Origin: a virus
Reading direction: 5' to 3' (one strand)
Length of the DNA: 44,042 nt
Virus record (IMG/VR): IMGVR_UViG_3300012205_000001
Coordinates: 1-44,042 of that record
Position 1 is the stretch's first letter. Each line of letters opens with the position of its first letter. The position numbers and the translations under genes are program-made. The notes below the pieces were generated by a model. That model did no database searches, was not told where the DNA came from, and saw only the letters and a program-made list of their open reading frames with translations. Positions 1-30,868 of the stretch are shown one piece after another.

Positions 1-123
1 CGCTCGATGGAGCGTCCGGCCTCACGCGACCATTGGCCGGTCAATCGTCAGCAGCGGGGCGCCCGGATGGATGATCGCCCCCACCGATCGCGCAGATTGA
101 CCCCACTGCTCGATTTGCGTCTC
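1..123. repeat. Terminal direct repeat; identical copy at 43920..44042 (circular assembly overlap or terminal redundancy)
   Basis: Read directly: the first 123 nt of the window recur exactly as its last 123 nt. The repeat contains the 3' end of the minus-strand peptidase gene. Confidence 0.85.
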
Positions 124-542
124 CAGCCACCGGCGCCAGTCGTCATCACCGCCGGCGGGAAACGACCCAGCTTGCAGCAGATGCAGGACCGCGGGAAGCT
201 CCAGGTGCGGAATCTCGAACGATAGGGCTCGCAGACCGAGGCCGGTTCCGATCTCCTGGTACCGCTGCCACATGCCGGCGTCTGGCTCGGACCACGTCCA
301 GCCGTCGTCGACCTTGAAAACGTAGTCCACCGCCAGCCCGTATTGATGGAAGCTCTCCCAAGCGCGGGCCCGCGTAACGTGCCGGCCCGGCCGACGGCGT
401 AAAGCTCGGCTTGGCGGAACGGTGTGCGGCAGCATTCATAGGGCTGCAGCGGAATGCCGGCCTTATATAATTGCAGGTCGAGCTCGGGCAGTAAACCGCG
501 CAGCGCCGGGTGCAGAGTCAAGGTGCTAGGGTCGCGCGCCAT
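22..542 (-). CDS. Peptidase M15 (VanY / L-Ala-D-Glu peptidase-like) endolysin, apparently split by a frameshift near 360-380
   Basis: Track ORF 22..435 carries SFHQYGLAVDYV (SxHxxGxAxD zinc-binding signature) and FEIPH (ExxH). The N-terminal half RTPFRQAELYAVGRAGT lies in the overlapping frame of ORF 48..620, beginning at the Met at 540-542. The span 22..542 is 521 nt, not a multiple of 3. Confidence 0.6.
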
Positions 543-1243
543 CAGCGCAGCCCACGGCGGTGGGTACGGGATAGCGGATCGGCGGCCTTGCGATCCATGC
601 GGGCCGCCATGTGGTGCCAATTCGGGTCGAGCTCGCGCCCGAAATCGCTGCTGATGAACCCGTCAGGATCGCGGATCAGCCGATAGCCGCCCCCAGTGCG
701 ACTCAAGCAGAATGGCGCATCGACCGTGTCGAGATACGTGTAGGGCCGTGCTGCGCCGGCGACGAACCACGCCGGCAGGACGAAATCCGAGACCCAGATC
801 CGCCGCGTCTCGGATCCGATCGTCACCTCGATGTCGTAGCGGTCCCGCTCGCATGGGTCGCACAATTCGCGCGCCACCTGACGCCCGTCGGGCATCGGCA
901 GCCAGAGGTCGCACCTGGGGTCGGCGCGCAGCTCCAGGGCCTCATGGCTGAGCGTGGTAGCGTCCAGCGGGTCGACTGATGCCAAGACACGGCCGAACGC
1001 GAGGCCAGCCACGTCGTCGTGAAACCCAAGGGCGCCCATTTTGTCGATGTCATCGAGGATCGCCAGCGGCCAGAAGGTCCCCGCCGGCAGCCCGCTGAGC
1101 GTCGCGTAGGACCGCACGGGCCACGGCTCCTCGGCGAAGGCCGGTCCCCAATGCTGCTCCATCTGGATGTTGATGGCCCGCGCCTGGAACGCAAAATCGG
1201 CCGGCGTCAGGAGGCGGCTGCTGGCCTGGCAGGCGATTTCCAT
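542..1243 (-). CDS. Hypothetical protein (233 aa) between lysis membrane proteins and endolysin
   Basis: Track ORF; its stop overlaps the start of the downstream peptidase gene (TGATG) and its start overlaps the upstream stop, suggesting translational coupling. No motif recognised. Confidence 0.45.
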   Translation of the reverse strand: MEIACQASSRLLTPADFAFQARAINIQMEQHWGPAFAEEPWPVRSYATLSGLPAGTFWPLAILDDIDKMGALGFHDDVAGLAFGRVLASVDPLDATTLSHEALELRADPRCDLWLPMPDGRQVARELCDPCERDRYDIEVTIGSETRRIWVSDFVLPAWFVAGAARPYTYLDTVDAPFCLSRTGGGYRLIRDPDGFISSDFGRELDPNWHHMAARMDRKAADPLSRTHRRGLR

Positions 1244-1848
1244 CAGGGCAACTGATGGGTCGAGAGCCAGATTTCGGCATGATCGATCTTGAGCTGCGCG
1301 AGCCCATCCTCAGCGGCGAACGACTTGTCCTGGATCGCTTCGCCACGCAGCTGCGCGACCGCCTTGTTGACGACGCAGAGGCTGTATTTGATCGCCAGCG
1401 CTTCGAGCTGCGCGACGTAGTCCTTGACGACCAGCGCGGTTTCGACCGCAGGAAGGATCCCGGGCGACACCGCCTTCGCGCAATCGACGACGACGGGCGT
1501 CACATGGGCGCAGGAGGCCAGCGTCAGGAAGGTGATGATATACAGCTTTGCAAATAGTTGCATGATGAATCCTTTCACTCGGCTTCCAACGCGAGACGTA
1601 GTTCGTTCCACGTGTCTGGATCCGGTGATCGCCCACGCGACGCTGCGTAGCCGTTCCTCGACATCGAGGAGGGCGGCGGCCCGTCCTTCCGGGTCCAGTC
1701 CATCCGCACGGCGCGCAATCTCCAGCAGCGTGCATGTGATTCCACCAAATTGACGGGCATAGGCGTGGATGACGTCATACTCTGCCGACCTCCCATCATG
1801 ATGCGGAACCGGATCGCGAGACGGCGTAGAATGGTCATCATCGACCAC
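1243..1848 (-). CDS. Hypothetical protein; C-terminal part (from internal Met near 1563) has a lipoprotein-type signal peptide, possible outer-membrane lysis lipoprotein (o-spanin-like)
   Basis: Internal sequence MQLFAKLYIITFLTLASCAHV is a hydrophobic stretch ending in lipobox L-A-S-C, preceded by an AAAGGA-like RBS. Track ORF starts at GTG 1848. May be two genes (1564..1848 and 1243..1563). Confidence 0.4.
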   Translation of the reverse strand: MVDDDHSTPSRDPVPHHDGRSAEYDVIHAYARQFGGITCTLLEIARRADGLDPEGRAAALLDVEERLRSVAWAITGSRHVERTTSRVGSRVKGFIMQLFAKLYIITFLTLASCAHVTPVVVDCAKAVSPGILPAVETALVVKDYVAQLEALAIKYSLCVVNKAVAQLRGEAIQDKSFAAEDGLAQLKIDHAEIWLSTHQLP

Positions 1849-2100
1849 TGGCGCCTCTCGGTGGCGTGATCGCCTTCAGCACGGCAATCTCCTCCCCGTG
1901 TGTCCCCAGTCGCGCCATCGCATGGGCCAGCGTCGCGGCCAGGGCGGCATCACCCTCCTTCGACTCGCGTCGCATCTCGGTCACCTCGTTCTTGAGGCTC
2001 GTGAGCTCGGTCTCGAAGCGACCCCATATCCTCGCCAGCGCGAGGCCATAGATGATGAAACCGGCACCGGTCGAAAAGGCACCGATGTCGGCAATCGTCA
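1838..2100 (-). CDS. Small membrane protein: N-terminal TM helix plus coiled-coil region (holin/antiholin or i-spanin-like)
   Basis: From internal ATG: MTIADIGAFSTGAGFIIYGLALARIW, then charged helical ELTSLKNEVTEMRRESKEGD. The track ORF 1838..2290 extends upstream from a TTG with an Arg-rich, implausible N-terminus. Confidence 0.4.
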
Positions 2101-2283
2101 TGGCGACGTCACAACCGATGTCTTGGCCACCGCGCGGACCGACGGGCTGAGCGCCAGCGCGGCGCCGCCTATGGCCTGACAAAGGATGATGAGCCATGTC
2201 GGCGCTCCGCCCGCCACGGTGGCGATGGCGACCGATTGAGCGGCGCCGCCCAGGGCCAACATGATGCGATCGAAAGGTCCCAT
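2098..2283 (-). CDS. Small two-TM membrane protein, holin-like (61 aa)
   Basis: MGPFDRIMLALGGAAQSVAIATVAGGAPTWLIILCQAIGGAALALSP: two hydrophobic segments and a short polar C-terminus. Stop overlaps the ATG of the next membrane protein. Confidence 0.4.
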   Translation of the reverse strand: MGPFDRIMLALGGAAQSVAIATVAGGAPTWLIILCQAIGGAALALSPSVRAVAKTSVVTSP

Positions 2284-2286
2284 GAT

Positions 2287-2532
2287 TCAATCTCCTTTGT
2301 GGCTGCGAATCACGAGCGTCCGTTCATCGAGTATAGCGATGTTCTTTGCGCAATGGGTGACACGCTTTTCAAGCTCATCCATATCGCTCTCGATTTTCGT
2401 CAGACGCGTCTCTGAGGCCTCAAGATGGGACGTCGATCGACCATCACGCCAAACCCGCATCAGGACCATGACGGCGAAATTGGCGAGGAGTCCCACGACA
2501 GCGACGACTGCGGTGATGCCCTCCCAGTGCAT
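2287..2532 (-). CDS. Small membrane protein with N-terminal TM helix and coiled-coil (lysis-associated)
   Basis: MHWEGITAVVAVVGLLANFAVMVLMRVW then charged ETRLTKIESDMDELEKR. First gene of the small-membrane-protein run, downstream of motif copy D. Confidence 0.45.
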   Translation of the reverse strand: MHWEGITAVVAVVGLLANFAVMVLMRVWRDGRSTSHLEASETRLTKIESDMDELEKRVTHCAKNIAILDERTLVIRSHKGD

Positions 2533-2545
2533 TTATCTCGCACCC

Positions 2546-2577
2546 CGTCACCTGCCAGCAAAGCTGGGTCCTGTCAC
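2546..2577 (-). promoter_or_regulatory. Copy D of conserved 32-bp bipartite motif (GTGACA-N17-CAGGTGACG on minus strand) upstream of the lysis cassette
   Basis: Read directly; same length and spacing as copies at 6812..6843, 25473..25504 and 27706..27737. Confidence 0.4.
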
Positions 2578-4601
2578 GCGGTGAAGCTATCGGAGCGCCA
2601 GCGCACCAGAAAGCGCGTCTCCCATATTTCCCCACGCCGAAAAGTCGCCGCGCGGGTGCAGCCCTGGTAACGCACTTCGCTAATCCCACTCGTCGGCCAG
2701 GCGTAGCTGTCGGGGCGCTCCAGCACATCGCTGAATCGCTGCCCATCGCCCAGCGCATCGCGCATGACGGATTGCCGGTCACCGCCCCCCGCGTCGCCGC
2801 CGCCGCGCTGATACGCGACCCGAATGACGATCGTCGCCTCCCAATAGGCCTCCCCGATGGCCCGATTGCGCATCACGGGCGTGATGGCTTCGACGTCGGT
2901 GAAATAGTCGCCGTCCATCTTGCTGAGCGGCTCTTTGTCGAGTGTGAATCTGCAGCCGGACCGCAAACCGCCATCCGTAGAACTGGCCGACATGACAGCC
3001 GCCAGGCGGGCATCGATCTGAGTCAAGACGGCCGACAGGGGACAGAAGCGATTGTTGGTGGGCCCCGGCGTCACGCCGCCGCTGGTTGTGACGATCCCTG
3101 GACTGGCGGTCAGCCCGACGCCGCTGAGCGCCACCGCAAGCGACGGAACGATGCTGCCGGCCGCTGCGGTCGCGGCTGCGCCCGAGACGGCGACCGCTGT
3201 GCCGAACTGCAGGGTGCCGGCCAACGCGCTAGCCGCGTTGCCGGTGAGCGCCAGGGCCATCGCCAGTGCCACGCTGCCGACCCCGGCGGTCGCATTGCTC
3301 CCGACCGCCGGTACGTCGGTGGATGGCGTGACCGAGCCCGCCGAGGCAGTCGCCGCCTGGCCGGATAGTGCCACGGTGACATCCGAGCCGGCCGCGACCG
3401 TCGCGGCCCAATTGAGGGGGAAACGCGGCCGCCCGCCGATGGCCTGGGGTCGGCCGGGCCCGCGCAGAATAAACGGTACCGCTGCCGTGCGGCTGTCGGA
3501 GAGCAGGATCTGCGACCCAACATTACCGGCCGCCGTAGTGGCGGCCGCGCCCGTCAATGCGACATCGATGGCCGGCACCACCGTGCCGGCCGATACGGTC
3601 GCCCCCACGCCCGAGACCGGAACGGCCGTCGATGGTATGACGGTTCCGGCAGCGGCGGTTGACGCCTGGCCGGTCGCGGGGACATCGATCGCAATCGTGA
3701 CCGACCCTGCCGCCGTCGTGGCGGCCGAGCCCGTCAGTGCGACTGTGACGTCGCCCCCCGTCGGACTGGTCCATGTCAGGGGCTTAGCCGACGGCCCCAG
3801 GATGGGCATCGGCTTGCCGGGGCCACGCAGCAGGAAAGGTACCGCCATGGTGCGGGTGTCGAAGCCGGTGACCGGCGCGAAGAGATAGTTTTTTCGCGTC
3901 ATGGCCCGCATCAGGCGCGGCTTGGCGAGCGTCACATTTGGAACCGTCCGGATGATCGGTGCCCGCTCGCGAATGCTCAGGGTGCCGGTGTTGACGCCGA
4001 GGCCAGCGACCAGATCAACGCCGTTCAGATCATTGAGCGGATCGAGGAGGAGTGCATCATCACGGCGAATCTTGGTGAAGTCGGCGCCCCGGGCCAGCGC
4101 ATCGATCTCGTCCGGCCTGAGGCAGGTTCTCCACCAGCCGAATTGCTCTAACCAACAATCGGTCGTCGCGATCGTTGCATCAGTCCGCATCCAGAGCCGG
4201 ATATTGCTGGTCGTCGTCTGGCTGAAAGTACCGACCGGCGAACTGCTGGCCTGCTGTCGCCCGTCGATGTAGACGCGCATTGCCAGTGCGGCGCCGTCGT
4301 AGACCTGACAGACATGGATCCAATTCTTGTTCGTCCACTGAGCGGTCGTTGCCACCACCTGGCTACCGCTGCCGGTGATGACTTGCGCGCGGACGAGGTT
4401 GAATGCGCTGGCCGAGGGCGTGCCGACTGTAAAATCACCACTGACCGTCCCAACTCCGCGAGCGATGAATGCCCACTGAGCGACCGGCGTTATCTGAGGC
4501 TGGACCCAGATAGAGAGCGTATGGGACGTCGAGATGTCGAAGCGCCCATTGTTCGCATATTCGCGAAAGTTGGAACCGGAGGCGCCATTGTAGAGCGACA
4601 C
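2574..4601 (-). CDS. Tail fibre / receptor-binding protein: N-terminal LamG-like jellyroll domain, internally duplicated Ala/Thr/Gly/Val-rich shaft, C-terminal ~130-aa domain paralogous to gene 18515..19000
   Basis: N-terminus NKNWIHVCQVYDGAALAMRVYIDG resembles the LamG/concanavalin-like core. Two ~100-aa segments both begin AVPF(L/I)LRGPG. C-terminus aligns with the 18515 protein (FxLDKEP, VAYxRGGGDA, EVRYQG, GEIWExRF, WRSD). Starts at GTG. Confidence 0.6.
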   Translation of the reverse strand: MSLYNGASGSNFREYANNGRFDISTSHTLSIWVQPQITPVAQWAFIARGVGTVSGDFTVGTPSASAFNLVRAQVITGSGSQVVATTAQWTNKNWIHVCQVYDGAALAMRVYIDGRQQASSSPVGTFSQTTTSNIRLWMRTDATIATTDCWLEQFGWWRTCLRPDEIDALARGADFTKIRRDDALLLDPLNDLNGVDLVAGLGVNTGTLSIRERAPIIRTVPNVTLAKPRLMRAMTRKNYLFAPVTGFDTRTMAVPFLLRGPGKPMPILGPSAKPLTWTSPTGGDVTVALTGSAATTAAGSVTIAIDVPATGQASTAAAGTVIPSTAVPVSGVGATVSAGTVVPAIDVALTGAAATTAAGNVGSQILLSDSRTAAVPFILRGPGRPQAIGGRPRFPLNWAATVAAGSDVTVALSGQAATASAGSVTPSTDVPAVGSNATAGVGSVALAMALALTGNAASALAGTLQFGTAVAVSGAAATAAAGSIVPSLAVALSGVGLTASPGIVTTSGGVTPGPTNNRFCPLSAVLTQIDARLAAVMSASSTDGGLRSGCRFTLDKEPLSKMDGDYFTDVEAITPVMRNRAIGEAYWEATIVIRVAYQRGGGDAGGGDRQSVMRDALGDGQRFSDVLERPDSYAWPTSGISEVRYQGCTRAATFRRGEIWETRFLVRWRSDSFTA

Positions 4602-4613
4602 GCGCTCTCCCGC

Positions 4614-5090
4614 CTATTGCGCTTCCGGGTTATTCCCGATCCAGCGAAGCCAATGATTGGAACCGGTCGTATCGGTATTGACGGCAGTGTCATGATAGAA
4701 CATGACGCCGAAGCTGGGGCCGGGGTTCACGATGAACGCCTCGACATAAACCACGTCGCCCGTCGCTGGCGATGCCAGATTGCGCGCTACACCGATGAAT
4801 TCCGCATTGGCGCGTGTCAGCGCGCCGGCGGTCGCGGCGGCATTATCCGATCGGTGGGCCGTCCCGCCAGCATCACCGCGAATAGCATAGAGATAGAAGC
4901 CTTTGTTGCCGGTCGGTGAAGTGCCCTGCTTGAATTTTCCAAAGACGTGAATCAGAGAGTAACGCGTCACTGAATTATCGACCATGTCCGACTGTTGGCC
5001 AGCAAACGTCGTCGATGATGCGATATTCGCGATGGTGATCGTGAAGGCCGCGGATGCGGAGTATGTATCGAGGATGGCTGATTTTGCCAT
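4614..5090 (-). CDS. Hypothetical tail/fibre-associated protein (158 aa); same frame as the downstream fibre, separated by one TAG
   Basis: Track ORF. Both ORF starts are congruent mod 3, and only 4 sense codons lie between the TAG at 4614-4616 and the GTG at 4599-4601. Confidence 0.45.
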   Translation of the reverse strand: MAKSAILDTYSASAAFTITIANIASSTTFAGQQSDMVDNSVTRYSLIHVFGKFKQGTSPTGNKGFYLYAIRGDAGGTAHRSDNAAATAGALTRANAEFIGVARNLASPATGDVVYVEAFIVNPGPSFGVMFYHDTAVNTDTTGSNHWLRWIGNNPEAQ

Positions 5091-5534
5091 TTAGGTCGGC
5101 ACCCCCGTCGCGCGGCCCATGTCCCAAGTCGTAATCACAGTCCCGGTGCCGAATAAGATTTCGGCGCGACTCGCCGAGCGGTTGACGAATGCGATCAGAT
5201 TGGCGCGCGTGGTTGGCGCCGTGAGAGACGGAAACATGGCAAGAAAATTGGCCTGGACGGTCGCATTGCTGGCATCGATTTGCATGCAGGCCACATAAGA
5301 CATAAAAAGATTCTGGTTCGGTATTGATAGCAGAACGAACTCAGATTGAACGATTTGATTCATCAGCTGATAGCCGGCAATCACACCGGACCCAATCGTT
5401 TCGCTCGAACCACCGAGCGCGTTGATCAGCGCGACTCGTTGGGCGACGGTCTTGCCCGCATAGCCGAGCAGCTTCGGATCGTTGGTGATCTCGTTGCCGA
5501 GTGCCGTCAGCTGGCCGTTCGTGAGATCAGCCAT
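5091..5534 (-). CDS. Hypothetical tail module protein (147 aa)
   Basis: Track ORF, tightly packed with neighbours on the same strand; no motif recognised. Confidence 0.45.
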   Translation of the reverse strand: MADLTNGQLTALGNEITNDPKLLGYAGKTVAQRVALINALGGSSETIGSGVIAGYQLMNQIVQSEFVLLSIPNQNLFMSYVACMQIDASNATVQANFLAMFPSLTAPTTRANLIAFVNRSASRAEILFGTGTVITTWDMGRATGVPT

Positions 5535-5538
5535 CGCA

Positions 5539-6102
5539 TCAGTTGGGGCTAACGATCCTGAACTGATGGACCAGAATCGAATTGCTGGCGTTCGCGACCG
5601 ACCAGGTGCCGAACAGATCCACGACCGCAGATCCGGTGTTGTCGAAGCCGGTGCCGACGGCGGGGGCGCTGGCCGGGATGAGCAGGACGCCAGAGCCGCC
5701 GGTGCCGGGAACGGGCGAGCCGATGACCGCCTCCGAACTCCAGATTCCGGTATGCATCAGCGTGCAGGCCGTGCCACCGCCCACTGCACGACAGGTCAGG
5801 TCCCAATCGAGTTTCCAGGTCACGTTGGTTTTTGCCACGATGTTGAGCGCAAACGCGCCGCTGGTCGCTACAATGACCGAGCCGAACTTGAGATCGAATG
5901 TGAACGTCCCGGGCGTCGTGACGACCGTCGACATGCGGCCCGCCGCCTGGACCTTCAGCTCTTGGCCAATGGAGGAGAAGAAGCCGGGGAACAGCGTGAA
6001 TTTCGAGCCGGCATGCAGCAGACTGGTCGCCGTCGTGGTATTCGTGAGGGCGGCGCCATCGACCTGCGAGGTCCAGAGCGTTGAAGTGAATCCTTGCGAC
6101 AT
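5539..6102 (-). CDS. Hypothetical tail module protein (187 aa), Thr/Gly/Ser-rich
   Basis: Track ORF with beta-rich, fibre-like composition. Confidence 0.45.
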   Translation of the reverse strand: MSQGFTSTLWTSQVDGAALTNTTTATSLLHAGSKFTLFPGFFSSIGQELKVQAAGRMSTVVTTPGTFTFDLKFGSVIVATSGAFALNIVAKTNVTWKLDWDLTCRAVGGGTACTLMHTGIWSSEAVIGSPVPGTGGSGVLLIPASAPAVGTGFDNTGSAVVDLFGTWSVANASNSILVHQFRIVSPN

Positions 6103-6110
6103 GGGTTCTC

Positions 6111-6569
6111 CTATGCGATGCGAACGAGACCATTCGATGCGTCGTTGACCGGCATCGTGATCGTGAAGGTCCCGGCGGTGATCGTCTGACTGCCGAACGT
6201 GTAGACACCGATGGCCCGATTACTCTGCGTGCTGTTGTAGATCGTCACGCAATCGAACGCGGTCGTCAGCGTCACGGTCGTGTAGACGATGCTCGCGCTT
6301 GGCGTCCAGAATGCCGTTGTGCCGCTCGTCGTCGGCGCAGTTGCGTTCGTGACTGTGACGCCACCGGCCGAATATCCGGTGCCACTGACTTCGTTCGTTG
6401 CGCTGTAGGCCGTCGTCGCAGCGCCCTGGGTACCGGCGGTGGCGACATAGAGTGCCGCCTTCACGGTATCGGCGCCCGTGCCGCCACGCGTGACGGTCGT
6501 GCCCAGCGCGTGGAGTGCGGTCATCGCCTCGGACTTGAACGACGTGCAGATTGCCTGAACATTCGCCAT
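6111..6569 (-). CDS. Hypothetical tail module protein (152 aa), Thr/Ala/Gly-rich
   Basis: Track ORF; composition typical of fibre/baseplate proteins. Confidence 0.45.
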   Translation of the reverse strand: MANVQAICTSFKSEAMTALHALGTTVTRGGTGADTVKAALYVATAGTQGAATTAYSATNEVSGTGYSAGGVTVTNATAPTTSGTTAFWTPSASIVYTTVTLTTAFDCVTIYNSTQSNRAIGVYTFGSQTITAGTFTITMPVNDASNGLVRIA

Positions 6570-6572
6570 CGG

Positions 6573-6806
6573 TCAGCCCCCTACGGTCCCGGTCAATGCC
6601 GCCGCCAGCTGGCCGGCCTGCTTGAGCACCACATGAGCCGACCGGTGGACGATGAGATCACTACCCGGCAGCCGATACTCGACCCAATTCGTCAACTCGT
6701 TGTCGTTTTCGACCTGGCCCGTCAGCTTGACCAGCATCTCCTCGGGCACAGCGCACAACACGACGCCGCCGGGCTCCGGAGCGTCGAATTCATTCGGCTG
6801 ACCCAT
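6573..6806 (-). CDS. Hypothetical small protein (77 aa)
   Basis: Track ORF; ATG at 6804-6806 sits 5 nt downstream of motif copy A, whose AGGTGA serves as the Shine-Dalgarno. Confidence 0.4.
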   Translation of the reverse strand: MGQPNEFDAPEPGGVVLCAVPEEMLVKLTGQVENDNELTNWVEYRLPGSDLIVHRSAHVVLKQAGQLAAALTGTVGG

Positions 6807-6811
6807 ATAAG

Positions 6812-6843
6812 GGTCACCTGCCCAAGTCGAGACGGCCTGTCAA
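6812..6843 (-). promoter_or_regulatory. Copy A of conserved 32-bp bipartite motif (TTGACA-N17-CAGGTGACC on minus strand)
   Basis: TTGACAGGCCGTCTCGACTTGGGCAGGTGACC on the minus strand; 24 of 32 positions identical to copy B, including CGACTTGGGCAGGTGACC. Confidence 0.45.
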
Positions 6844-6994
6844 CAGCACTGAACGGCAGGTCAGCTTGCGGGAATTTTCGGGAGGTGCGAACGTTTCAGA
6901 TGCAGATCAGCTCCCGGCCTCATGAACCGTGGGTGGCGCTGGCGTCCCCGGCGCTGGGTCTGCCTAACCAGGGGACGGATGAAGGGACGGCATC

Positions 6995-7384
6995 ATGATG
7001 AAGCAACTCGGATTGATCGGGGTTTTGCTGACTGCTGGCTGCTTCGGCAGCCTGATTCTGATGACGGTCGGATGCGGAACGATTGATGAGCAGCCGACCG
7101 ATGAGAACGGGCAGCCCCTCACCTATTGCCCGCAGGATATCCCGGTGAACGTTTTCTCAGCTGGTGGTTGCCAGAATTGGATTGGCCCGAATCGTCCTCA
7201 ATGGCCAGCCGCCGGCATGAAGAAAGATGGTCGGTTCTGCGCGACGTGCTCATGGTTCACGAAGCCCAGCCCTGAAAATGGATTCACGCCTGGACCGACG
7301 ATTGGAATTGCCGATTGCATGATTGGCGGTCCGGATGCCTATCGTGGCGTACTCTGCGTCGCCTCCTGCGATGAATGTCAGTAG
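6995..7384 (+). CDS. Cys-rich secreted protein or lipoprotein (129 aa), opposite-strand insert (moron-like) in the tail module
   Basis: MMKQLGLIGVLLTAGCFGSLILMTVGCG is a signal-peptide-like N-terminus with Cys after the hydrophobic core; about 10 Cys in the mature part. GAAGGGA RBS before the ATG. Only plus-strand gene within 1-42 kb. Confidence 0.55.
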   Translation: MMKQLGLIGVLLTAGCFGSLILMTVGCGTIDEQPTDENGQPLTYCPQDIPVNVFSAGGCQNWIGPNRPQWPAAGMKKDGRFCATCSWFTKPSPENGFTPGPTIGIADCMIGGPDAYRGVLCVASCDECQ

Positions 7385-8815
7385 CTAGAACGGCGCGCCG
7401 AACGCGATCAGCGTGAAGGCTCCGATTCTGACAGAGTCAGTCGTGCCGTTCGATTTCGCGCAGAGCGCGATCCGGTCATAGGCTGCCCCAGCCCCAGCGT
7501 AGCCGAGAAAATAGGGCGCGCTGGTGAAATTCAGGCTCGCGGTGCTGGAACTCGCGACGTCGGGATACCATTTGAACGTTGCTCCGCTGATGGTCGGCGC
7601 GTTGGTAATGGCCGTCGCGGAGCTGGACATTGAGCCGGCCGAATCGCGGTTCGCCACGCCGATAGTACCGGTGTCCGTCGCGCCGTTCATCGCCGCATAT
7701 ACGAAGACGTAGATCCGTACCTGCGTATAGAGCCCCGCCGCCGAGTATCTCAGCGGCAGCGTGATGGCCGGCAAGCTGGCGGCGAAGCTGGTGCCGCCAG
7801 AGCCATAGGACTGGTCAAAGATGTAGCGGAAGTTGCTCTTGCTCGTCGTGAAGGCGACGTAACCGGTGCCGGTTCCGGGTCCGATCGCCGACCAGCCGAC
7901 CTGACCGCGGCGATATGTCAATGTGTCGACATAGTTGACTCGCATCTTTTGAAGAGTATCGCTTGAGTCGGCGGTCGCTGTGATGGCGACTACTTCGCCG
8001 CCCTGATGAAGCCGCTGCGTCCCGACGTATGGGCTCTTGCCCGCGACGGTGCCGGTCGAATCGATGTAGGCGCCAGTACTCGTCTGATCGATGAGGTCCT
8101 GGGGTTGCTGATAGACCATGCCGGCATATAGGATCGGACCATTCGAAAAGGCACCATTCTCCGGTCCTGAAAAGAATTGCATCTCGGCATTCGGCGCCAC
8201 AAAACCGCGCGCACTGATGATTGTGTCGGTCTGGATATTCGTCGGATATGGAATCTGCGGCATCGTCGTATAATTCAAATAGTTCGCGAACGTCGTATCG
8301 AAATATTTCACGCCCCAGCCCTGATTCGCCTGTTGGTTGAGCGGCGGTGAGGCCCAATGGATTTGCGCGCCTTCGGCCACATTGCCGAAATTACGCCCGC
8401 AATAGACCTGCCGGAACGCGGGCCCATAGTTCGGGTCAGAAGGCAACAGCACATGGCCAGACGTCGTCGAGACGCCGCCGGTGAAGAAGTTGAAGTAAGG
8501 TTTGCCCGAGAAGGCAAGTCGATTAAGGGCATCAGTTTCGCGCTTGATCAGCGACGCGAGTGCCGGCGCGCCGTTCCGACCCTGGGTCCTCAGTGTGTCG
8601 TCGAACAGGATCGGTGCTGCGCTGCCGCCGACCGCAATCGTCGCGCCCTGTGAGCCCGGCGTGATGCCGGTAGATGTGCCGGATCTGCCGCCAGAGCCCG
8701 TGTCGCCGCCCACACCGGATGTCCGGCCCCTGGCGCTGCCTGGGGTTGAGCCCGGCGTACGGATCAGGGCGGGGCCGAAGCGGCGGAGGCGGGGGATCAT
8801 TCGTAGCCGAACCAA
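7385..8815 (-). CDS. Tail fibre-like protein (476 aa) with Gly/Ser/Thr-rich N-terminus
   Basis: Track ORF; N-terminal GDTGSGGRSGTSTGITPGSQG low-complexity stretch, then beta-rich sequence. Its stop abuts the stop of the plus-strand gene (TAGCTA). Confidence 0.5.
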   Translation of the reverse strand: MVRLRMIPRLRRFGPALIRTPGSTPGSARGRTSGVGGDTGSGGRSGTSTGITPGSQGATIAVGGSAAPILFDDTLRTQGRNGAPALASLIKRETDALNRLAFSGKPYFNFFTGGVSTTSGHVLLPSDPNYGPAFRQVYCGRNFGNVAEGAQIHWASPPLNQQANQGWGVKYFDTTFANYLNYTTMPQIPYPTNIQTDTIISARGFVAPNAEMQFFSGPENGAFSNGPILYAGMVYQQPQDLIDQTSTGAYIDSTGTVAGKSPYVGTQRLHQGGEVVAITATADSSDTLQKMRVNYVDTLTYRRGQVGWSAIGPGTGTGYVAFTTSKSNFRYIFDQSYGSGGTSFAASLPAITLPLRYSAAGLYTQVRIYVFVYAAMNGATDTGTIGVANRDSAGSMSSSATAITNAPTISGATFKWYPDVASSSTASLNFTSAPYFLGYAGAGAAYDRIALCAKSNGTTDSVRIGAFTLIAFGAPF

Positions 8816-9447
8816 CAGCTGAAGTCAGCGATCCCAGGCAGTACGGCAGCCGACGAGCCACCTATCATGGTCACGGTTACGATTACGTTCGACGTATAAG
8901 CCGCGCCCGCGCCATTGCCGACGAGATTGAGCGCCGCCAGATAATTGGTTACCCCCAGGATCGAATCGTCGACGAGAAAATATCCGGCCGTCGTGAAATT
9001 GATCGTCACCGTGCGCGCGATCTGTTGCCCCGCCGCGCTGCCGCCGACATTCAGCTTCGTCGGGACGAAGGCCGCCCCCTGCGCGCTGGCGACATAGGGC
9101 GTCGTCGATAGGTAGACCGAGCAGGCGGTCATGGCATTGCCGCTTGCCGTGTCGCGGATCAGACCCGCAGCCCATAGCATCCTGACGGCGCCAAGCGGCA
9201 CGATGATCGGGCACTGCATCAGCGCGTACTCGCCCGCCGCCGTGACAGAGACCGAATATGTGCCGCCGACCGCGCTTTGGATGTATTGTGCCCACGGCTG
9301 GACATAGGTCGCCGCATTGTTGAGGTGGCGGACGAGATCCAGCGGAACGATGGAATGCATGCCCTCGCCGTCGTTCAACCAATCGTCGAAACCGCCGCCA
9401 GTAGCCGGGGGCCAGAGCGAGACCTGCTCCTTGAGCGTTACTGCCAT
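8797..9447 (-). CDS. Hypothetical tail/baseplate protein (216 aa)
   Basis: Track ORF between the large tip protein and the fibre-like protein. Confidence 0.45.
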   Translation of the reverse strand: MAVTLKEQVSLWPPATGGGFDDWLNDGEGMHSIVPLDLVRHLNNAATYVQPWAQYIQSAVGGTYSVSVTAAGEYALMQCPIIVPLGAVRMLWAAGLIRDTASGNAMTACSVYLSTTPYVASAQGAAFVPTKLNVGGSAAGQQIARTVTINFTTAGYFLVDDSILGVTNYLAALNLVGNGAGAAYTSNVIVTVTMIGGSSAAVLPGIADFSCWFGYE

Positions 9448-12335
9448 TTGAAGAGACTCGTCGTCGTGACGGTATCGACGCGCCGAGTGGATCCGTTGCC
9501 CTGCCAGGTCACGGATGTCGCGCCACCCTGCTTTCGGGATGTGGACGCTAGATGATACTTGTCCAGCAGCATGACATACTCGACGGCGCCGGCCAGCGCC
9601 GCGATGCCGGTCGTCAGCGTGACGGTGCGACCCGCGCCAGCCTTAGACGCAATCGTGTCATTCGAGGTGAACTGATAGCCCGAATCATTGTGCCGGGAGA
9701 CGATTCGCACCTTGTCGCCGACCGCGAAGTCAACCCCGTCATAGTTGTTCGCGGATTTTGTATAGTGGCTCGCCAGCGTCAGGATCTTCGTCCCGGTGTC
9801 ATAGCCGTTGGTGGCGGCGGTATGATCGACGAGCGCGCAGGGCGACCAAGGCGAAAAGGCGCGGGTATTCGATGAGCCCAGCACGTAGAGCTCGGCCGTA
9901 CATTCGCCGGTCCGATAGTTCTTGGAGATGCCACCGAGAATCGCGTAGACGCCGTCCGCTGCGGTGATTCCACGCGCGCCCGTGAATGGATTGGCGAGTG
10001 TGTTGTCAACGATTTGATGAAATGTCCCTGGACTGAGCATGAGCGCGGTTTTGTTCACGCTTCGATGCCAAACGGTCCATGGGAATTGATAGATAACCGA
10101 GTGGGACGTGATGTGCGGGATCAAAGCCTGCACCTGTGATCCAGTTCCGCCATGCACGCGCGCACCGAAGCTCTTGTCGGGAATGTCTTCCTGTCTGATG
10201 TCATTGGGGAAGAAACTACGCGTGGTCAGTGAGTTAACGATGATATCGGGGGCTGTGAAAGCGCCAGCCAGATTGTCCCAGCCTGTCTGAACCTTCCAGG
10301 AGCCACGCATACTGGTGCGGTCCTGCTTGGCCAGCGTTCGGTCTTCAATCTTCGCCCGATTCGCTTCGGAGAAGATGAACGATGAGCCCTGCGCACTATT
10401 GGCCGCCGCGGCGGCAGTCGGCTGCTGGATGTAACGCAGTCTGATCTTAGAGATGCTCGGATCCCAAAGGATGAATAAGCCGAACTCGCGCGCGATCGCC
10501 TGATAGTAATCATTAAACTTCGTGGTGCGATCGATGACGAATACGCGGCCGACGACTGGATCAATCGGCACGCGAAAATCATCTTTCGAGACGACATTGT
10601 TCCAGCCGATGCCGGCGCCTTGCACCCAATAGTTGAATATCGCATCGGTCGGCGCACCGGTTGACGAACAGAGCATCCGCCCAAGTGAGGCGGCGGCATC
10701 ATCATTTTCTGCAATGACCTGCTCGACGGTTCCGACCGCCCCCAGCGCATTCACATAATACGACTTCGCCCCAAGCAACGAAGCTGGCGTTACTGTGAGT
10801 GAATTCGCGATACTACCCGGCGAGAGAGATGCTATCAGTGCGGCGATACTGCCTCCAACATTGGTCGTATTATTCACAACCAATAGAGAGCCATTTCCCA
10901 GACGAACCAGATACAATGTCGCCGGAACTGACTGCGTATAGGGAATGAATTCCGCAGATGAGCCAGCTGTGCTGAGCATAATAACCAGTGATGAGGCGAG
11001 TTGCAAATAGAGTGGGACATAAATAGATGCTACCGATCTAATTCCCGTCAATGTAGAATTGCTCTGTAGCTCAATGTCCATGCTCTGTGAGTCAGGCTCG
11101 ACAGCATTGTAGGCGAAGGCATTGCGTTCCATCCCCAATGCATCGCCAATATCAGCGAAATCGCCGTCATTGCCCTGGATCAAAATAGTGAATGTGTTAT
11201 TCGTTGTCGTCGGCATTAGTAGACGGAAGTATTCCAGGCCATCCGATTGATTGATGATCGTTTTGAGTGTCAATGATAATTTGACTGCAGACATTGCTGC
11301 GTTCATCGCAGTAATTAACGCCGCCTTTGTATATATCTTTTGTGGAATTTGGAATGGTGGATCAGATGGATTACTGCTATTGCCCAGGCTGCCCCAATAC
11401 GAACTAGAACCGCCGCCGATGGCACCTGTGACGACTTTCCAGCGGCACATTTCTGGCTGCAGTAGATAGATCCCAGGACTGATAGTATCGTGTGCGAGGT
11501 CGGGCGCCACCAATGCCTTGTCGAGATCGCTCGTTATGCTGTCAATCGTCATCTGGAATCCGGTGCCATCATTGCTGGTATCGATGGCCGTCACGCGGCC
11601 CAGCATGATGCAAGTGCCATCGCTCTCGATGCCGGGTGTACTACTCGGGCCAATGCTCCCCATGTAGACTGCGGCGACGCGACCATAGATGTTCATGATG
11701 TCATTGGCGACCCACGTCCCCTCGGTCGGCTGGAGAGCGGAATCGTAGCCACCGATCCGATGATAGGGCGTCGCCGGGAACGTCGAGGAGGCATCGGACG
11801 TGGTCCCCATTGCCGGGTATTTGTTCCGGGTGATGATCTGCATGGTCGTCGTGCCGGCACCGTCATCATAAATTAGCGAGATTCCAACCGCCTCAGCCCC
11901 GACGTAAACGTCGGACTGTGCCGTCCAAGGGCCACCGCCACGGACGAAAAAGGTCGAGGTCGACCCGTCCGCGGCGATGTTGCTAGCGAGTTGGCCGACT
12001 CCATTGGTGAGACTGGAGAGCACGCGCCCTGGGGCGAAGAGTCGCGAAAAATAACCGATGCCCGGATGGGCTGGATCGTCGAAATCTAGCAGCGTCAACT
12101 TCATTCGCTCGGGACGCGCCACGCCGCCGATCAGATCGTTGAAGCGCTGCTCGACATGGTCGTCTGGGATGATAAGTCCGCGCTTGGCCCAGATGGTCGG
12201 GTAGTTCGCCGGCCTGGTGAATGGGTCGGCCGTCCCGGCGATGTTGCCGAAGATGTAGAACGGCACGCCGCTGATCCGCAGCCAGAAATAGGGCTGTAGC
12301 GCCTGCCGGTCGGTGACGTCGGTCTGCACCGTCAT
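9438..12335 (-). CDS. Large tail tip / central fibre protein (965 aa; Tal or gpJ-like by position)
   Basis: Largest ORF; lies two genes downstream of the tape measure protein, the usual position of the tip protein in siphovirus-type tail modules. No catalytic motif recognised. Confidence 0.5.
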   Translation of the reverse strand: MTVQTDVTDRQALQPYFWLRISGVPFYIFGNIAGTADPFTRPANYPTIWAKRGLIIPDDHVEQRFNDLIGGVARPERMKLTLLDFDDPAHPGIGYFSRLFAPGRVLSSLTNGVGQLASNIAADGSTSTFFVRGGGPWTAQSDVYVGAEAVGISLIYDDGAGTTTMQIITRNKYPAMGTTSDASSTFPATPYHRIGGYDSALQPTEGTWVANDIMNIYGRVAAVYMGSIGPSSTPGIESDGTCIMLGRVTAIDTSNDGTGFQMTIDSITSDLDKALVAPDLAHDTISPGIYLLQPEMCRWKVVTGAIGGGSSSYWGSLGNSSNPSDPPFQIPQKIYTKAALITAMNAAMSAVKLSLTLKTIINQSDGLEYFRLLMPTTTNNTFTILIQGNDGDFADIGDALGMERNAFAYNAVEPDSQSMDIELQSNSTLTGIRSVASIYVPLYLQLASSLVIMLSTAGSSAEFIPYTQSVPATLYLVRLGNGSLLVVNNTTNVGGSIAALIASLSPGSIANSLTVTPASLLGAKSYYVNALGAVGTVEQVIAENDDAAASLGRMLCSSTGAPTDAIFNYWVQGAGIGWNNVVSKDDFRVPIDPVVGRVFVIDRTTKFNDYYQAIAREFGLFILWDPSISKIRLRYIQQPTAAAAANSAQGSSFIFSEANRAKIEDRTLAKQDRTSMRGSWKVQTGWDNLAGAFTAPDIIVNSLTTRSFFPNDIRQEDIPDKSFGARVHGGTGSQVQALIPHITSHSVIYQFPWTVWHRSVNKTALMLSPGTFHQIVDNTLANPFTGARGITAADGVYAILGGISKNYRTGECTAELYVLGSSNTRAFSPWSPCALVDHTAATNGYDTGTKILTLASHYTKSANNYDGVDFAVGDKVRIVSRHNDSGYQFTSNDTIASKAGAGRTVTLTTGIAALAGAVEYVMLLDKYHLASTSRKQGGATSVTWQGNGSTRRVDTVTTTSLFKWQ

Positions 12336-19860: not shown

Positions 19861-20319
19861 TCACTCAGTGGGGAACCCGATGAAGGTGCTGACCGTCGGC
19901 GCGGTGCCGGACGGGACCAGAGAGCGGGTGACGAAGCGGCTGAAGTTGTCGCCCGAGACGTTGAAGGCCTCGGTGCTCAGGACGCGCAGAGCACTGACCT
20001 GCGAGCCGCCCGCGCCGGTGGCGGCGATGGGCTGCCCCTTGTTCATGGCGCCCACCCACAGCCAGCGCGGCGAACTGGCAAATACGCCTTGGTCGGCGTA
20101 GCCCAACAGGTCGATGCGGCAGGAGACCGCACCCACCGTGTCGGCGTAATCCACGGCCACCCAGATGCGGTTGGCCGCCATGAGCGGGGCCACGCCGCCG
20201 GTCATGATGTCAGACAGCGCCTTGCCGGCCGCGCCACCAGACGGATAGGCGGTCGTGGTCGTTGAAGCGTTCAGGTCCTGGACCCAGCGGATCCCGCCTT
20301 CTGCGGTTTGGTACCCCAT
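19861..20319 (-). CDS. Hypothetical structural protein (152 aa)
   Basis: Track ORF; start abuts the stop of the upstream glycosyltransferase-like gene. Confidence 0.45.
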   Translation of the reverse strand: MGYQTAEGGIRWVQDLNASTTTTAYPSGGAAGKALSDIMTGGVAPLMAANRIWVAVDYADTVGAVSCRIDLLGYADQGVFASSPRWLWVGAMNKGQPIAATGAGGSQVSALRVLSTEAFNVSGDNFSRFVTRSLVPSGTAPTVSTFIGFPTE

Positions 20320-21152
20320 TACGCGGCCTCTTTGCGCTCGGCCTTGGCCTGCGCGTCAGCGAGCAGTTGCGGCACATGGTCCAGCGCCACGAACCCGTTG
20401 ATATAACGGACCTCGGTCGCGCCGACGGCGCCGCGCAGAGCGGCGGCCTGTTCCTTGAGCGTCGGCGAATCGTCCTTCCAGCTGTCTTCCCAGTGCTGCC
20501 AAGAGAAGGTAAGTGGACCAGTGTCCTTCATGTGCACGGTGCGAAAGCGCGGGTCGGCCAGCACCTTGAAGCCGGCCGCGCGCAGCCGCGTGCAGAAATC
20601 GTAGTCTTCGCCCACCTCGGACACGCTGCCGGTGAACGTTCGCTTGATGGCGAAGCGAAACCAGGGCAGGTCGTCGCGCGTGGCCTTGAGCGCCGAGACG
20701 CGGATCATCATGAAGCCCGTCGCCACCGTCGCTACTTCGACCGGCTGGAACGGAAAGCCGCTGATGACATGGCAGCACTCCTCCGGGTGCTCCTCATGCG
20801 CCACGGTCACCGTGGGGACCATGGGGCGCTCGCGCAGGTAGACCGCGCCGATCGCGCCCACCTCGGGATGCTGATCGAACAGCGCGTGCCAGACATCCAG
20901 CGGGTTGCCGCCGGGCCCGCCCGCCTCAATCCATAGATCATCATCATGCATGACCAGAAAGTCGTACCCGTCGTTGACCGCCTGGTCGGCGATTCGAGTG
21001 CGCGCCATCTGCACCGGGCCACACGTGAACGCGAAGCTGTCCCGGCCACGCTCGAACGTGCGGCAGCCCATCTCCATGTCGCGCATGCTTTTGACGTACG
21101 CGAGGGTTGGGTGTCGCCCGCTCGGCGTGGCGTAGAACAGCCGGTCGGCCAT
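20319..21152 (-). CDS. Glycosyltransferase-like protein (GT-A fold, DxD) embedded in the head-tail module
   Basis: DFLVMHDDDLWIE (DxD-type motif) and GEDYDFCTRLRAAGFKV, reminiscent of family-2 glycosyltransferases. Lies between capsid-proximal and tail genes on the same strand. Confidence 0.5.
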   Translation of the reverse strand: MADRLFYATPSGRHPTLAYVKSMRDMEMGCRTFERGRDSFAFTCGPVQMARTRIADQAVNDGYDFLVMHDDDLWIEAGGPGGNPLDVWHALFDQHPEVGAIGAVYLRERPMVPTVTVAHEEHPEECCHVISGFPFQPVEVATVATGFMMIRVSALKATRDDLPWFRFAIKRTFTGSVSEVGEDYDFCTRLRAAGFKVLADPRFRTVHMKDTGPLTFSWQHWEDSWKDDSPTLKEQAAALRGAVGATEVRYINGFVALDHVPQLLADAQAKAERKEAA

Positions 21153-28073: not shown

Positions 28074-28282
28074 AGGCGGCCCATCAGCATGCGCGCCGGC
28101 GGCCGGATGCAGATGTCGCTCACGGCCCGATGCGCGACTCCCATGCTGCGCTCGACCTTTTCGTCGCTCGTCATGGCGCCATGCTGGACCACAACCTTGA
28201 CGTGTCCGTGGTGCTGGCAGTCAGGGCAGGCCCAGGGCAAGAACCATTCGATCGGGCCCTTTTGCGGCATGGTGCCTACCAC
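27971..28282 (-). CDS. Hypothetical small protein with Cys/His cluster (103 aa)
   Basis: PWACPDCQHHGHVKVV suggests a metal-binding motif; stop/start is close to the upstream glycosyltransferase. Confidence 0.35.
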   Translation of the reverse strand: MVGTMPQKGPIEWFLPWACPDCQHHGHVKVVVQHGAMTSDEKVERSMGVAHRAVSDICIRPPARMLMGRLWRFELGRPIWMLKKGETQETFHPEKWPPWGKTN

Positions 28283-29148
28283 GGGATTTCACCAAAGCGA
28301 CTCAGCATCTGTCGGTGCTCCTCCTCGCTCTGCTGGCGCGCGCCAAGGTCGCCCTGAATCATCGCCATCCCGCCGGCGGGATTGGTGGTCCGGATAACGA
28401 GTGGCTCACGGTCGCCAGAATTGACGATAACTGAATGCCGAGAGATATTCTGCAGCCAGCCATGGCGGACGGTCAATGGTTGGCCATAAAAGTAAACCAC
28501 GGGCGCGTCCTCGTCTACTAGGTGCGCGCGCTTCACGCCGTGCTTGTTCGCGCGCCCCAGCCATTCGGTGTCGACGTGGAATCGAAATCCCTCGTCCATC
28601 GGGCCGATCTCGTCCCATACGGCGCGATGCATGAGCCAGCCCGACGGCGTGGCGAAGTCATTGACGCGCTGGAAGTTGCCGGCCACGTCGACCTCGCGCT
28701 GATTACTGGTCACCATGTCGACGCGGGAGAGCCACGGGATTTGTGCAGCCAGCTTTTCGGGGCACCAGATGTCATCGTCTTCCAGGAACGCCAGCACGTC
28801 GCCGGTGGATGCGCGCACAGCGGCATTGACGGCGGCAGCTTGGCCGCCCGCGCCAGCGAATACCTGCGTAACGCCCTTGAAGCGCTCAGGTAGCAGCCCT
28901 GTGTTCAGCTGATCGCGAAAGGCTTGCATACCCATCGTCGCTGCCGCGATCGGATTGGCTGCGTTGACCTTTATCGGCGAATCCATTCCCACGACGAATT
29001 CAATTTCATGTTCGCCCGCGGCCGACTGCCGGTGCACCGACATCAGCGCGCGGTCGAGATAGAGATTCCCAGTCTCGCTCATAGGATTGACCTGCAAGCG
29101 ACTAGGTGTAATGACGCTGATTTTCACCGGCACACATCCGGAATCCAA
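28276..29148 (-). CDS. Family-2-type glycosyltransferase (GT-A fold)
   Basis: N-terminal ISVITPS, then GQAAAVNAAVRASTGDVLAFLEDDDIW (nucleotide-sugar binding region with DxD-type EDDD), typical of GT2 enzymes. Confidence 0.65.
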   Translation of the reverse strand: MDSGCVPVKISVITPSRLQVNPMSETGNLYLDRALMSVHRQSAAGEHEIEFVVGMDSPIKVNAANPIAAATMGMQAFRDQLNTGLLPERFKGVTQVFAGAGGQAAAVNAAVRASTGDVLAFLEDDDIWCPEKLAAQIPWLSRVDMVTSNQREVDVAGNFQRVNDFATPSGWLMHRAVWDEIGPMDEGFRFHVDTEWLGRANKHGVKRAHLVDEDAPVVYFYGQPLTVRHGWLQNISRHSVIVNSGDREPLVIRTTNPAGGMAMIQGDLGARQQSEEEHRQMLSRFGEIPW

Positions 29149-29422
29149 TGGTCATCGTCAACGCTGGGCTGCCATGGTTCGGACGTCTCAAGACGCGGCG
29201 GGGCGCACTGAAGACAGGTACAGCCAACAGAATGCGGGGATGTCATCAGCGCGTTTTCTTTGACGGCCAGGCGCAGGCGGCCAAGTGCATGATCGATTGT
29301 GTCTGCGGGTCGCTTCTCAGCAACGGACGTTGACATATGCGGCAGCGGGCCGTCTACCGTCTGTTTGCCATGCCACCATCCATCTTGATGAGGCCATTTA
29401 CATCCAACAAATCCACACATGA

Positions 29423-30868
29423 TCATCGCTGCCGCTCCAGTTCTTCGACGTACGGTCGATAGATAATCTCTCCCTGCCGCTTGGTCACTTGGTATTCGGG
29501 CCGCGTGATGACCGTGTGGCCATCGGCCAATTCGCGGTATCCCGAATAGTGAAAAGCCACGAGCGAGCGGTTGCCGAAGTACGGAACGCCGCCCCGGACA
29601 TCAAGCGCGCGGCCATGGATCGCCCACGGGCCAAGGTTTGCTCCTGGAGCCATAACCACATGCGCGCCATGCTTTTCCGGCCACGCGTCAAGGTATTTTT
29701 GGTCGCCATAACGCAACTGCCTTTCGGGAATTGGGACCTGCTCCACACGGTCATAACACCACTCTCGGCATTGCGCCGCCCACTCTTCGACAATCTCACG
29801 ATTCGCGATATAGACGAGGCCCACATTGTATTTTCCAAATACCTCATGCGTCTCAACTGTCGGCCCCGGTAACCCGTGCGATGCGCTGGCGAAGTTGTGC
29901 GGGAACACTGCCGCAGGTGCGGCGCCAATTTCTGCAAAGACTGGCTCTGGCGATGAATGGAACATTATGTCAGCATCGACGTAACAGACGGGACGGCCGG
30001 TCGACTTCATGACCTCTGCGATCCACCACGGACCGAGCGTCCACATCGTCTCGACCCTGGTGCGTTCCGGTCCAGGCAGGATGCCGATCGTGCCCGGCAG
30101 CTGCGTCGGGCATCCAACTGATTCTGCCCAATCACGCACGCCTTCGTCCCACGACAGAATATGCAACTCGAACGGCTGGCAGTGTCGCAGCATTGAGGCG
30201 TGGAGCGCCTTGAGGCGAGTGAGATAATTGCTATCGGCATATGTGGCGTAGACGCGCGGCCGCGCACAGACATAGGTCGTCGATCCACCGTCAGCTCGGA
30301 AAAAATCGCGACCTTGGAATCCAGTCTCCGCCATCGCGGCCATGAGGTCCATATGATTGACGTCCCAGGCCCGGAACGTCTGCCCGTAGCCATGCGTCTC
30401 GGTGCGTTTTGTCGCTATCGCCAGCGGCACACGATGAAGAATCACCCAGCGTCGCGACCGCGCGCATAGATCGGCAAGATGTATCTTCCAGTCGTCGGCA
30501 TGCATGAGGGCGCAGCCGTCGATCACGACGTCAAACGAACTCGGCAATCCGCATAAATCAAATGGCGGACGATCATGGCTGGCGAAGCAAACGAATTCGC
30601 TCTCCGGGTATCGCTCGAGCGCAACCTTGATCGCCGCTGGGCTGATGTCACAGCCGCCATAGCTTCGATATGCTATCCCCTGCCGATCCAGGACCTCACG
30701 GTTGTACCCGCTCGCGCAGCCGACCTCCCATAGCTCGCCGGGGCATTGCGTGGAGCGCACCGCATCGGCCAGGGCGCGAAACTGGATCGGCAGCGGGTCT
30801 TGCTGCAGCTGCTGATCTACCAGTTCACGCTGGGCGGCGGCGATCTCAGGCAGCATCCAGGGGTTCAC
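29423..30868 (-). CDS. Two-domain protein: N-terminal class I SAM-dependent methyltransferase-like, C-terminal nucleotide-sugar transferase-like
   Basis: LWEVGCASGYN (glycine-rich motif I-like) and DVVIDGCALMH in the N-terminal half; CYVDADIMF (DxD-like) in the C-terminal half. Confidence 0.5.
   Translation of the reverse strand: MNPWMLPEIAAAQRELVDQQLQQDPLPIQFRALADAVRSTQCPGELWEVGCASGYNREVLDRQGIAYRSYGGCDISPAAIKVALERYPESEFVCFASHDRPPFDLCGLPSSFDVVIDGCALMHADDWKIHLADLCARSRRWVILHRVPLAIATKRTETHGYGQTFRAWDVNHMDLMAAMAETGFQGRDFFRADGGSTTYVCARPRVYATYADSNYLTRLKALHASMLRHCQPFELHILSWDEGVRDWAESVGCPTQLPGTIGILPGPERTRVETMWTLGPWWIAEVMKSTGRPVCYVDADIMFHSSPEPVFAEIGAAPAAVFPHNFASASHGLPGPTVETHEVFGKYNVGLVYIANREIVEEWAAQCREWCYDRVEQVPIPERQLRYGDQKYLDAWPEKHGAHVVMAPGANLGPWAIHGRALDVRGGVPYFGNRSLVAFHYSGYRELADGHTVITRPEYQVTKRQGEIIYRPYVEELERQR

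Follow-up and report, generated by a model that had tools for sequence, protein, structure and literature searches.

The question raised by the left end of IMG/VR virus record IMGVR_UViG_3300012205_000001 is whether the endolysin gene found there is genuinely broken. The window, that is the whole stretch of 44,042 nt that was analysed, derives from an uncultivated, podovirus-like soil phage. A first-pass annotation had placed an M15-type peptidase gene at 22-542, split over two reading frames, and had offered a one-base sequencing or assembly error, a genuine inactivating frameshift or, less likely, programmed frameshifting as explanations. Our analysis favours, with a probability of about 85%, a genuine and ordinary inactivating frameshift caused by a recent 16-bp deletion in an M15 endolysin.

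A 16-nt gap separates the two frames

The split was confirmed with exactly these coordinates on the minus strand (Table 1). From start to stop the remnant measures 521 nt, which is no multiple of 3, and its start codon (ATG 542-540) shares bases with the upstream gene's TGA in an ATGA motif. Frame A reads MARDPS...RTPFRQAELYAVG (the fuller stretch from the start ATG being MARDPSTLTLHPALRGLLPELDLQLYKAGIPLQPYECCRTPFRQAELYAVG) and continues as nonsense until TGA 50-48. In frame B, shifted by -1 from A, the translation is PGRHVTRARAWESFHQYGLAVDYV...FEIPH... and, in its fuller form, PGRHVTRARAWESFHQYGLAVDYVFKVDDGW...LSFEIPHLE... to the TGA stop at 24-22. Inspection of the codons placed the conserved arginines R39 (428-426) and R43 (416-414) in the 5′ segment and the zinc ligands H71 (348-346), D78 (327-325) and H118 (207-205), as well as E115 (216-214), in the 3′ segment, which matches the zinc-site region of the endolysin Ply500. 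No continuous open reading frame (ORF) holds both the Arg-bearing N-terminal segment and the zinc site, which are found in frames 0 and -1. The predicted product from ATG 542 comprises 164 aa without the zinc site. Gene callers instead report a frame-B ORF of 137 aa (P0003), whose first 15 residues (MLPHTVPPSRALRRR) represent the 5′ segment translated out of frame. Exact-protein look-ups of P0003, of the 164-aa frame-A product and of a 122-aa ORF returned no matches.

The cause of the split became apparent from the 90%-identity cluster of the 137-aa ORF. It includes an intact protein of 178 aa (P0019) reading …LYAIGRGTGTPGRHVTRARAWES…, which is encoded on three contigs (L004, L005 and L006). 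The window differs from these contigs by point substitutions and one clean 16-nt gap with no other indel, at approximately 95% nucleotide identity. At this position L004 reads GCCATCG-GTCGCGGCACCGGCAC-GCCGGGCCGGCA and the window GCCGTCG-GCCGGGCCGGCA. The missing nucleotides extend from the second position of codon G51 to the second position of T56 (ancestral residues G51-R-G-T-G-T56), and placement of the junction is ambiguous by 1 nt due to a shared G. Since 16 nt correspond to five codons plus one base, the frame changes by -1. Intact homologues of approximately 178 aa, which are 50-72% identical in alignment A1, span both halves in a single frame, which supports the earlier view that the halves belong to one protein.

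Other details of the first-pass annotation had to be revised. It located the break of the frames at 355-380 in a run of G/C homopolymers. The actual break lies between 392 and 391, 10-35 nt upstream; frame B is already native by 355-380, and no homopolymer longer than three occurs at the break. The sequence motifs were correctly said to lie in different frames, but the N-terminal motif as quoted runs past the break. Its four final residues (RAGT) come from the former P-G-R-H codons, translated in the wrong frame, and their likeness to the ancestral GRGTGT is fortuitous.

The deleted residues fall in the sole low-confidence loop (residues 51-60) of the AlphaFold 2 model of P0019. This loop site separates the Arg-bearing N-terminal part in frame A from the H-D-H zinc site in frame B. 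A natural homologue, P0015, does without 11 residues in the same loop. As the loop is flexible in the model and 11 residues are absent from P0015, it is probably the extra base, rather than the loss of five residues, that destroys the protein.

The junction recurs in other contigs of the phage

Six more contigs of the phage were retrieved via the exact sequences of neighbouring proteins. All six carry the identical junction: L009 (ENA ERZ27253254), L010 (JGI 3300012361), L011 (GCA_009772175.1), L012 (GCA_009772215.1), L013 (JGI 3300012202) and L014 (ENA ERZ27253268). The last, a MEGAHIT contig of 43,937 nt, is a second full-length assembly in which the circle was opened at a different point. 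These contigs are 99.9-100% identical to the window, and the junction flanks are 100% identical; the intact string was detected in L004-L006 only. The same junction peptide, together with two further amino-acid changes, is present in P0020, a Plass-assembled protein of run SRR6266478. Over the 42-44 kb region, contigs from the L012/L013 sample diverge from the window by 0.5-0.7%, and the deletion is common to slightly different haplotypes. Among the junction-bearing contigs, some have probably been assembled anew from identical reads. Nevertheless, the junction is supported by no fewer than three or four samples and two or more assemblers (JGI, MEGAHIT k141, NCBI deposits), which all but rules out a sequencing or assembly error as the cause.

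The one-base error considered initially is thus refuted by the size of the gap in the DNA alignment and by the same junction in six other contigs. An artefact of another kind, in which bases of a GC-rich stretch dropped out of the contig and the true gene is intact and in a single frame, is scarcely credible. The region is GC-rich and the intact allele contains short repeats (CGGCAC CGGCAC), and contigs of other assemblies tend to stop inside the peptidase gene. However, a gap of 16 nt is unlike a homopolymer slip, the junction is present in seven contigs from these samples and assemblers plus the Plass protein of another run, and the intact string occurs in no contig of this phage. An edited sequence as the source of the gap (44,058 nt on record versus 44,042 nt in the window) was also dismissed, as the 137-aa protein in the database and six contigs carry the deletion. 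A search of the collections viral_contigs, genome_contigs and metagenome_contigs, which do not hold this phage's own contigs, found no copy of the junction 25-mer. The claim of a genuine inactivating frameshift is supported by this 16-nt deletion, reproduced across samples and assemblers.

Five short contigs of the phage from other assemblies (among L008-L013) end in the peptidase gene, at window positions 340, 339, 254 and 237, and another starts at 170.

Compared with L004, 30 codon differences are synonymous and 7 non-synonymous (11:1 before the junction and 19:6 after it). This ratio indicates purifying selection through most of the divergence and a recent deletion. The window encodes Leu at a position (APPL) occupied by Pro in all 14 intact homologues of alignment A1, and in P0020 a nearly invariant Leu is replaced by Arg. 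Both changes are compatible with the onset of decay, the counts being too small for proof.

Family and predicted fold of the intact enzyme

In the family search the frame-B ORF P0003 of the window itself was matched at E=4e-79, far beyond chance, and several homologues are named 'peptidoglycan L-alanyl-D-glutamate endopeptidase CwlK' by JGI. A profile of 17 homologues (A5) was compared with proteins of solved structure. It matched the endolysins Ply500 (2vo9, E=1.3e-13) and LysB4 (6akv, E=4e-11), and more weakly the LD-carboxypeptidases LdcB/DacB (E approximately 2e-3). In this profile H71, D78 and P117 are invariant, as are R39, P41, R43 and Q44 in the N-terminal part, and E115 and H118 are conserved in at least 90% of the sequences. 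The zinc triad H-x6-D...H with an acid three residues before the last His is present in frame B (SFH71QYGLAVD78, FE115IPH118). The PHROG endolysin families phrog_2649 and phrog_6523 were matched by a hand-spliced query that is not a possible product. This protein (…GRAGPGRHVT…) re-used overlapping nucleotides and served only for finding homologues; our conclusions rest on the natural protein P0019.

Scores against the curated Pfam models were lower. With a gathering score of 25 bits for Peptidase_M15_4 and VanY, the frame-B ORF reached 21.4 bits and intact P0019 20.5 and 17.1 bits; only the relative P0008 exceeded the VanY cut-off (25.6 bits). The NCBIfam models gave no match for the endolysin family. 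The AlphaFold 2 model of P0019, which is the intact relative and not the product of the window, had a predicted local distance difference test score (pLDDT) of 89. Foldseek returned 2vo9, 6akv, LdcB, VanXY and VanX as top matches to this model with a probability of 1.00, with E=1e-7 against the Ply500 and LysB4 structures. The assignment to the M15 type therefore stands with respect to profile, motifs and fold, but not with respect to Pfam scores, which remain below the curated threshold. We place the endolysin as a predicted Ply500/CwlK-like member of the MEROPS M15/LAS superfamily because of its profile-to-structure similarity, motifs and modelled fold, and not because of curated hidden Markov model thresholds. 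Specificity for the L-Ala-D-Glu bond is suggested solely by the nearest solved relatives.

These relatives, Ply500 of Listeria phage A500 (EAD, PDB 2VO9) and LysB4 of Bacillus phage B4 (PDB 6AKV), are L-alanyl-D-glutamate peptidases of M15/LAS that share the fold of the intact relative. Like the gene studied here they are phage lysis genes, and they show the same arrangement, R...Q..LYA.GR, a loop, S.H..G.A.D and E/D..H, with the H-D-H zinc triad. In contrast, sequence identity amounts to only about 25-28%. The family described here has E-x-x-H, as in VanX, where Ply500 and LysB4 have D-x-x-H, and a C-terminal extension of approximately 55 residues in place of a Gram-positive cell-wall-binding domain. 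Moreover, the copy in the window, unlike Ply500 and LysB4, is broken by the 16-nt deletion. The fold and zinc site are also those of the LD-/DD-peptidases CwlK, LdcB and VanY-VanXY (VanY PF02557, Peptidase_M15_4 PF13539). However, sequence matches to these are weak (E approximately 2e-3, 17-22 bits, P0008 excepted), and the gene described here lies in a phage lysis cassette rather than serving cell-wall maintenance or resistance.

Consequences for lysis and alternative readings

The ancestral gene would have encoded a Ply500/CwlK-like zinc peptidoglycan peptidase of the L-alanyl-D-glutamate type, located last in the lysis block. In this lineage a single 16-bp deletion took out part of the flexible surface loop G51-R-G-T-G-T56. 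The start codon and the Arg-bearing third kept their frame, and the zinc-binding and catalytic two-thirds (H71, D78, E115, H118) now lie at -1 to them. A ribosome starting at the ATG would yield 164 aa, consisting of 50 native residues and a nonsense tail, and the endolysin would be inactivated. Judging from the sequence, the gene product is most probably non-functional. The phage would in that case rely on another, unrecognised lysin, or it may be a defective or host-carried element. The earlier suggestion of a need for another lysin makes sense, but none is recognisable in approximately 40 ORFs: PHROG and Pfam scans of these detected no lysozyme, amidase, transglycosylase or peptidase domain, nor did PDB phmmer searches with the three largest virion proteins.

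Several observations weigh against simple inactivation. Contigs from several samples, representing at least two or three slightly different haplotypes, have the deletion as their consensus, and the closed genome otherwise looks intact. Pfam searches for lysogeny genes gave no integrase or repressor match. A lethal mutation would not be expected to show this pattern in a strictly lytic phage. This phage either does without the enzyme or has some means of rescuing it. In addition, the contig breaks in the peptidase gene may reflect strain heterogeneity or low coverage, the former being a hint of variation at this locus, and a minority intact allele may co-exist with the consensus seen in the contigs.

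Frameshift-inactivated lysis genes are known in defective prophages and phage-derived elements. As in these, a small indel breaks the endolysin ORF here and the rest of the element looks intact. A decaying prophage as the setting is not demonstrated, however, because neither integrase nor repressor was found, the contig is circularly closed and the phage was sampled repeatedly.

Dispensability of the enzyme, if real, could have its origin in the neighbouring genes. The peptidase gene is the last of the late array, and the small genes upstream of it appear to form a lysis cassette (Table 1). Directly upstream and translationally coupled to the endolysin gene lies the gene of a conserved 233-aa protein. 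This protein has at least 145 metagenomic homologues, and in L004-L006 it contains an intein of approximately 320 aa. A novel, distantly zincin-like fold is modelled for it with high confidence, and it carries an invariant H...SHExxE...E..D signature. Foldseek against the PDB and PDB profile searches gave nothing significant. Both it and the M15 gene are present in the window, L002, L004 and L007. In L018 and L020 it has no M15 neighbour that could be recognised; conversely, L001 has the M15 gene without it. This independent assortment in a lysis-type neighbourhood is circumstantial and compatible with a second lysis enzyme that makes the M15 peptidase dispensable. That the phage is still fully lysis-competent, with the 233-aa protein representing a so far overlooked class of lysis peptidase or endolysin and the M15 enzyme being redundant, is nonetheless a tentative proposal that we consider unlikely.

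Rescue at the level of translation is improbable. Programmed -1 ribosomal frameshifting or other recoding might join frame A to frame B, resulting in a full-length enzyme with a loop about five residues shorter. The required shift is -1, which is the common direction, frame A is open past the junction, and the natural lack of 11 loop residues in P0015 means that a shorter loop might be tolerated; the persistence of the allele in several haplotypes would also fit. On the other hand, no X XXY YYZ heptamer occurs from the upstream stop of frame B (438-436) to VTRARAW (approximately 378), as a scan of 435-373 in frame A for slippery heptamers also showed. The best candidate positions allow re-pairing of only 2/4, and the sequence offers no A/T run on which transcription could slip. 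The sole canonical heptamer, TTTCCCG at 162, is located well downstream of the zinc site. At least 15 relatives are all in a single frame (homologues of 171-258 aa, none with a two-frame organisation), so there is no evolutionary history of recoding, and the junction stems from a recent random deletion. Because of the missing slippery heptamer and the single-frame relatives, programmed frameshifting is very unlikely, in agreement with the low rank that it had been given before.

It is highly improbable that the 137-aa frame-B ORF is translated alone, or that the two pieces complement each other, with lytic activity kept: this ORF has an ATG at 435 and all three zinc ligands and is annotated by gene callers, but no Shine-Dalgarno-like sequence precedes ATG 435, residues 1-50 with the invariant R39, P41, R43 and Q44 are missing, which are part of the LAS core in the model, and the N-terminal piece would bear a nonsense tail of 113 residues.

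Lysis block and genome context

Table 1. Coordinates in the window of the endolysin gene remnant, its segments and the upstream genes.
Feature	Position	Strand	Remarks
Remnant of M15/LAS (putative Ply500/CwlK-like) endolysin gene, whole	22-542	minus	521 nt versus 537 nt in intact relatives
5′ segment, native frame (A)	392-542	minus	ATG 542-540 to codon V50 and first base of G51
3′ segment, native frame (B)	22-390	minus	P57 to A178 and stop 24-22
Deletion junction	391-392	minus	16 nt GTCGCGGCACCGGCAC of L004 absent
Frame-B ORF as called, 137 aa (P0003)	22-435	minus	gene callers, including the call in L014
Out-of-frame tail after the ATG 542 start (RAGTLRGPALGRASINTGW...)	48-389	minus	ends at TGA 50-48
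233-aa conserved protein	542-1243	minus	directly upstream of, and translationally coupled to, the endolysin gene
Small membrane/lipoprotein genes of the lysis block, together	1243-2532	minus	
106-aa lipoprotein, lipobox LTLASC	1243-1563	minus	L014 gene call, translation; putative function
87-aa protein	1838-2101	minus	L014 gene call; putative function
61-aa protein, holin-like, overlapping hydrophobic windows at residues ~7-49	2098-2283	minus	L014 gene call, translation, hydropathy; putative function
81-aa protein, one transmembrane segment	2287-2532	minus	L014 gene call, translation, hydropathy; putative function

The window carries an exact terminal direct repeat of 123 nt (1-123 and 43920-44042), and contigs L008 and L014 from other assemblies cross the join. 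It therefore represents a circularly closed, complete genome of approximately 43,919 bp. Due to the repeat, the last 102 nt of the peptidase gene are present at both ends. Nearly all ORFs are on the minus strand; the genes for terminase, portal and major head (capsid) protein are located at 27-22 kb on the same strand upstream of the peptidase gene. Megablast of window positions 1-12000, which cover the M15 gene and the lysis/tail end, against INPHARED phages found no relative, and a protein scan of viral_contigs was empty. In L004-L006, contigs of approximately 36 kb that are the closest with an intact endolysin, the lysis and early genes show 75-92% nucleotide identity to the window, as seen when window positions 2000-33000 were compared with L004. 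In the structural module no nucleotide similarity was detected. Shared lysis and early genes combined with an unlike structural module indicate that these genomes are mosaic.

Several further features of the genome were recorded. At 41514-42149, within the minus-strand ORF 41107-42273, a tandem array of 42 copies of a 15-nt unit encodes a long pentapeptide-repeat protein (Pfam Pentapeptide, E=8e-58); contig L014 ends inside this repeat, and L008, L015 and L017 align with an offset in copy number. A second repeat, of the 9-nt unit CCGAGCGGC in 44.6 copies, occupies 35497-35898 within overlapping minus-strand ORFs and would encode (A-A-R/L/D)n in ORF 35435-36331 or (G/W-P-L/I)n in ORF 35461-36240. 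A cluster of glycosyltransferase (GT2, GT1-like) and S-adenosylmethionine-dependent methyltransferase genes lies on the minus strand at 28276-31872 between the replication and packaging modules, and a further GT2-like gene is located within the structural module (20319-21152, minus). Glycosyltransferase and methyltransferase genes are unusual cargo for a phage of 44 kb. A small protein with a DnaA C-terminal helix-turn-helix domain (E=1.7e-11) is encoded at 32953-33306 (minus). Among the few plus-strand genes, the one at 43206-43502 encodes a 98-aa protein with a weak match to Hjc-type resolvases (E=5e-4), just below the threshold.

Implications

The 'hypothetical protein' of 137 aa on record corresponds to the 3′ two-thirds of a broken endolysin, and for annotation the lesion should be taken as real and not be corrected. 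The zincin-like 233-aa neighbour, itself uncharacterised, is a speculative backup lysin and worth testing as a lysis enzyme. If it does have this role, the M15 enzyme would be redundant, so that phages lacking it could become common in a natural population. In biological terms the deletion is a routine loss-of-function mutation, surprising only in that it persists as the consensus across samples. A consensus allele of this kind, in an apparently complete phage without a recognisable lysogeny module, implies either redundancy in lysis or non-lytic persistence.
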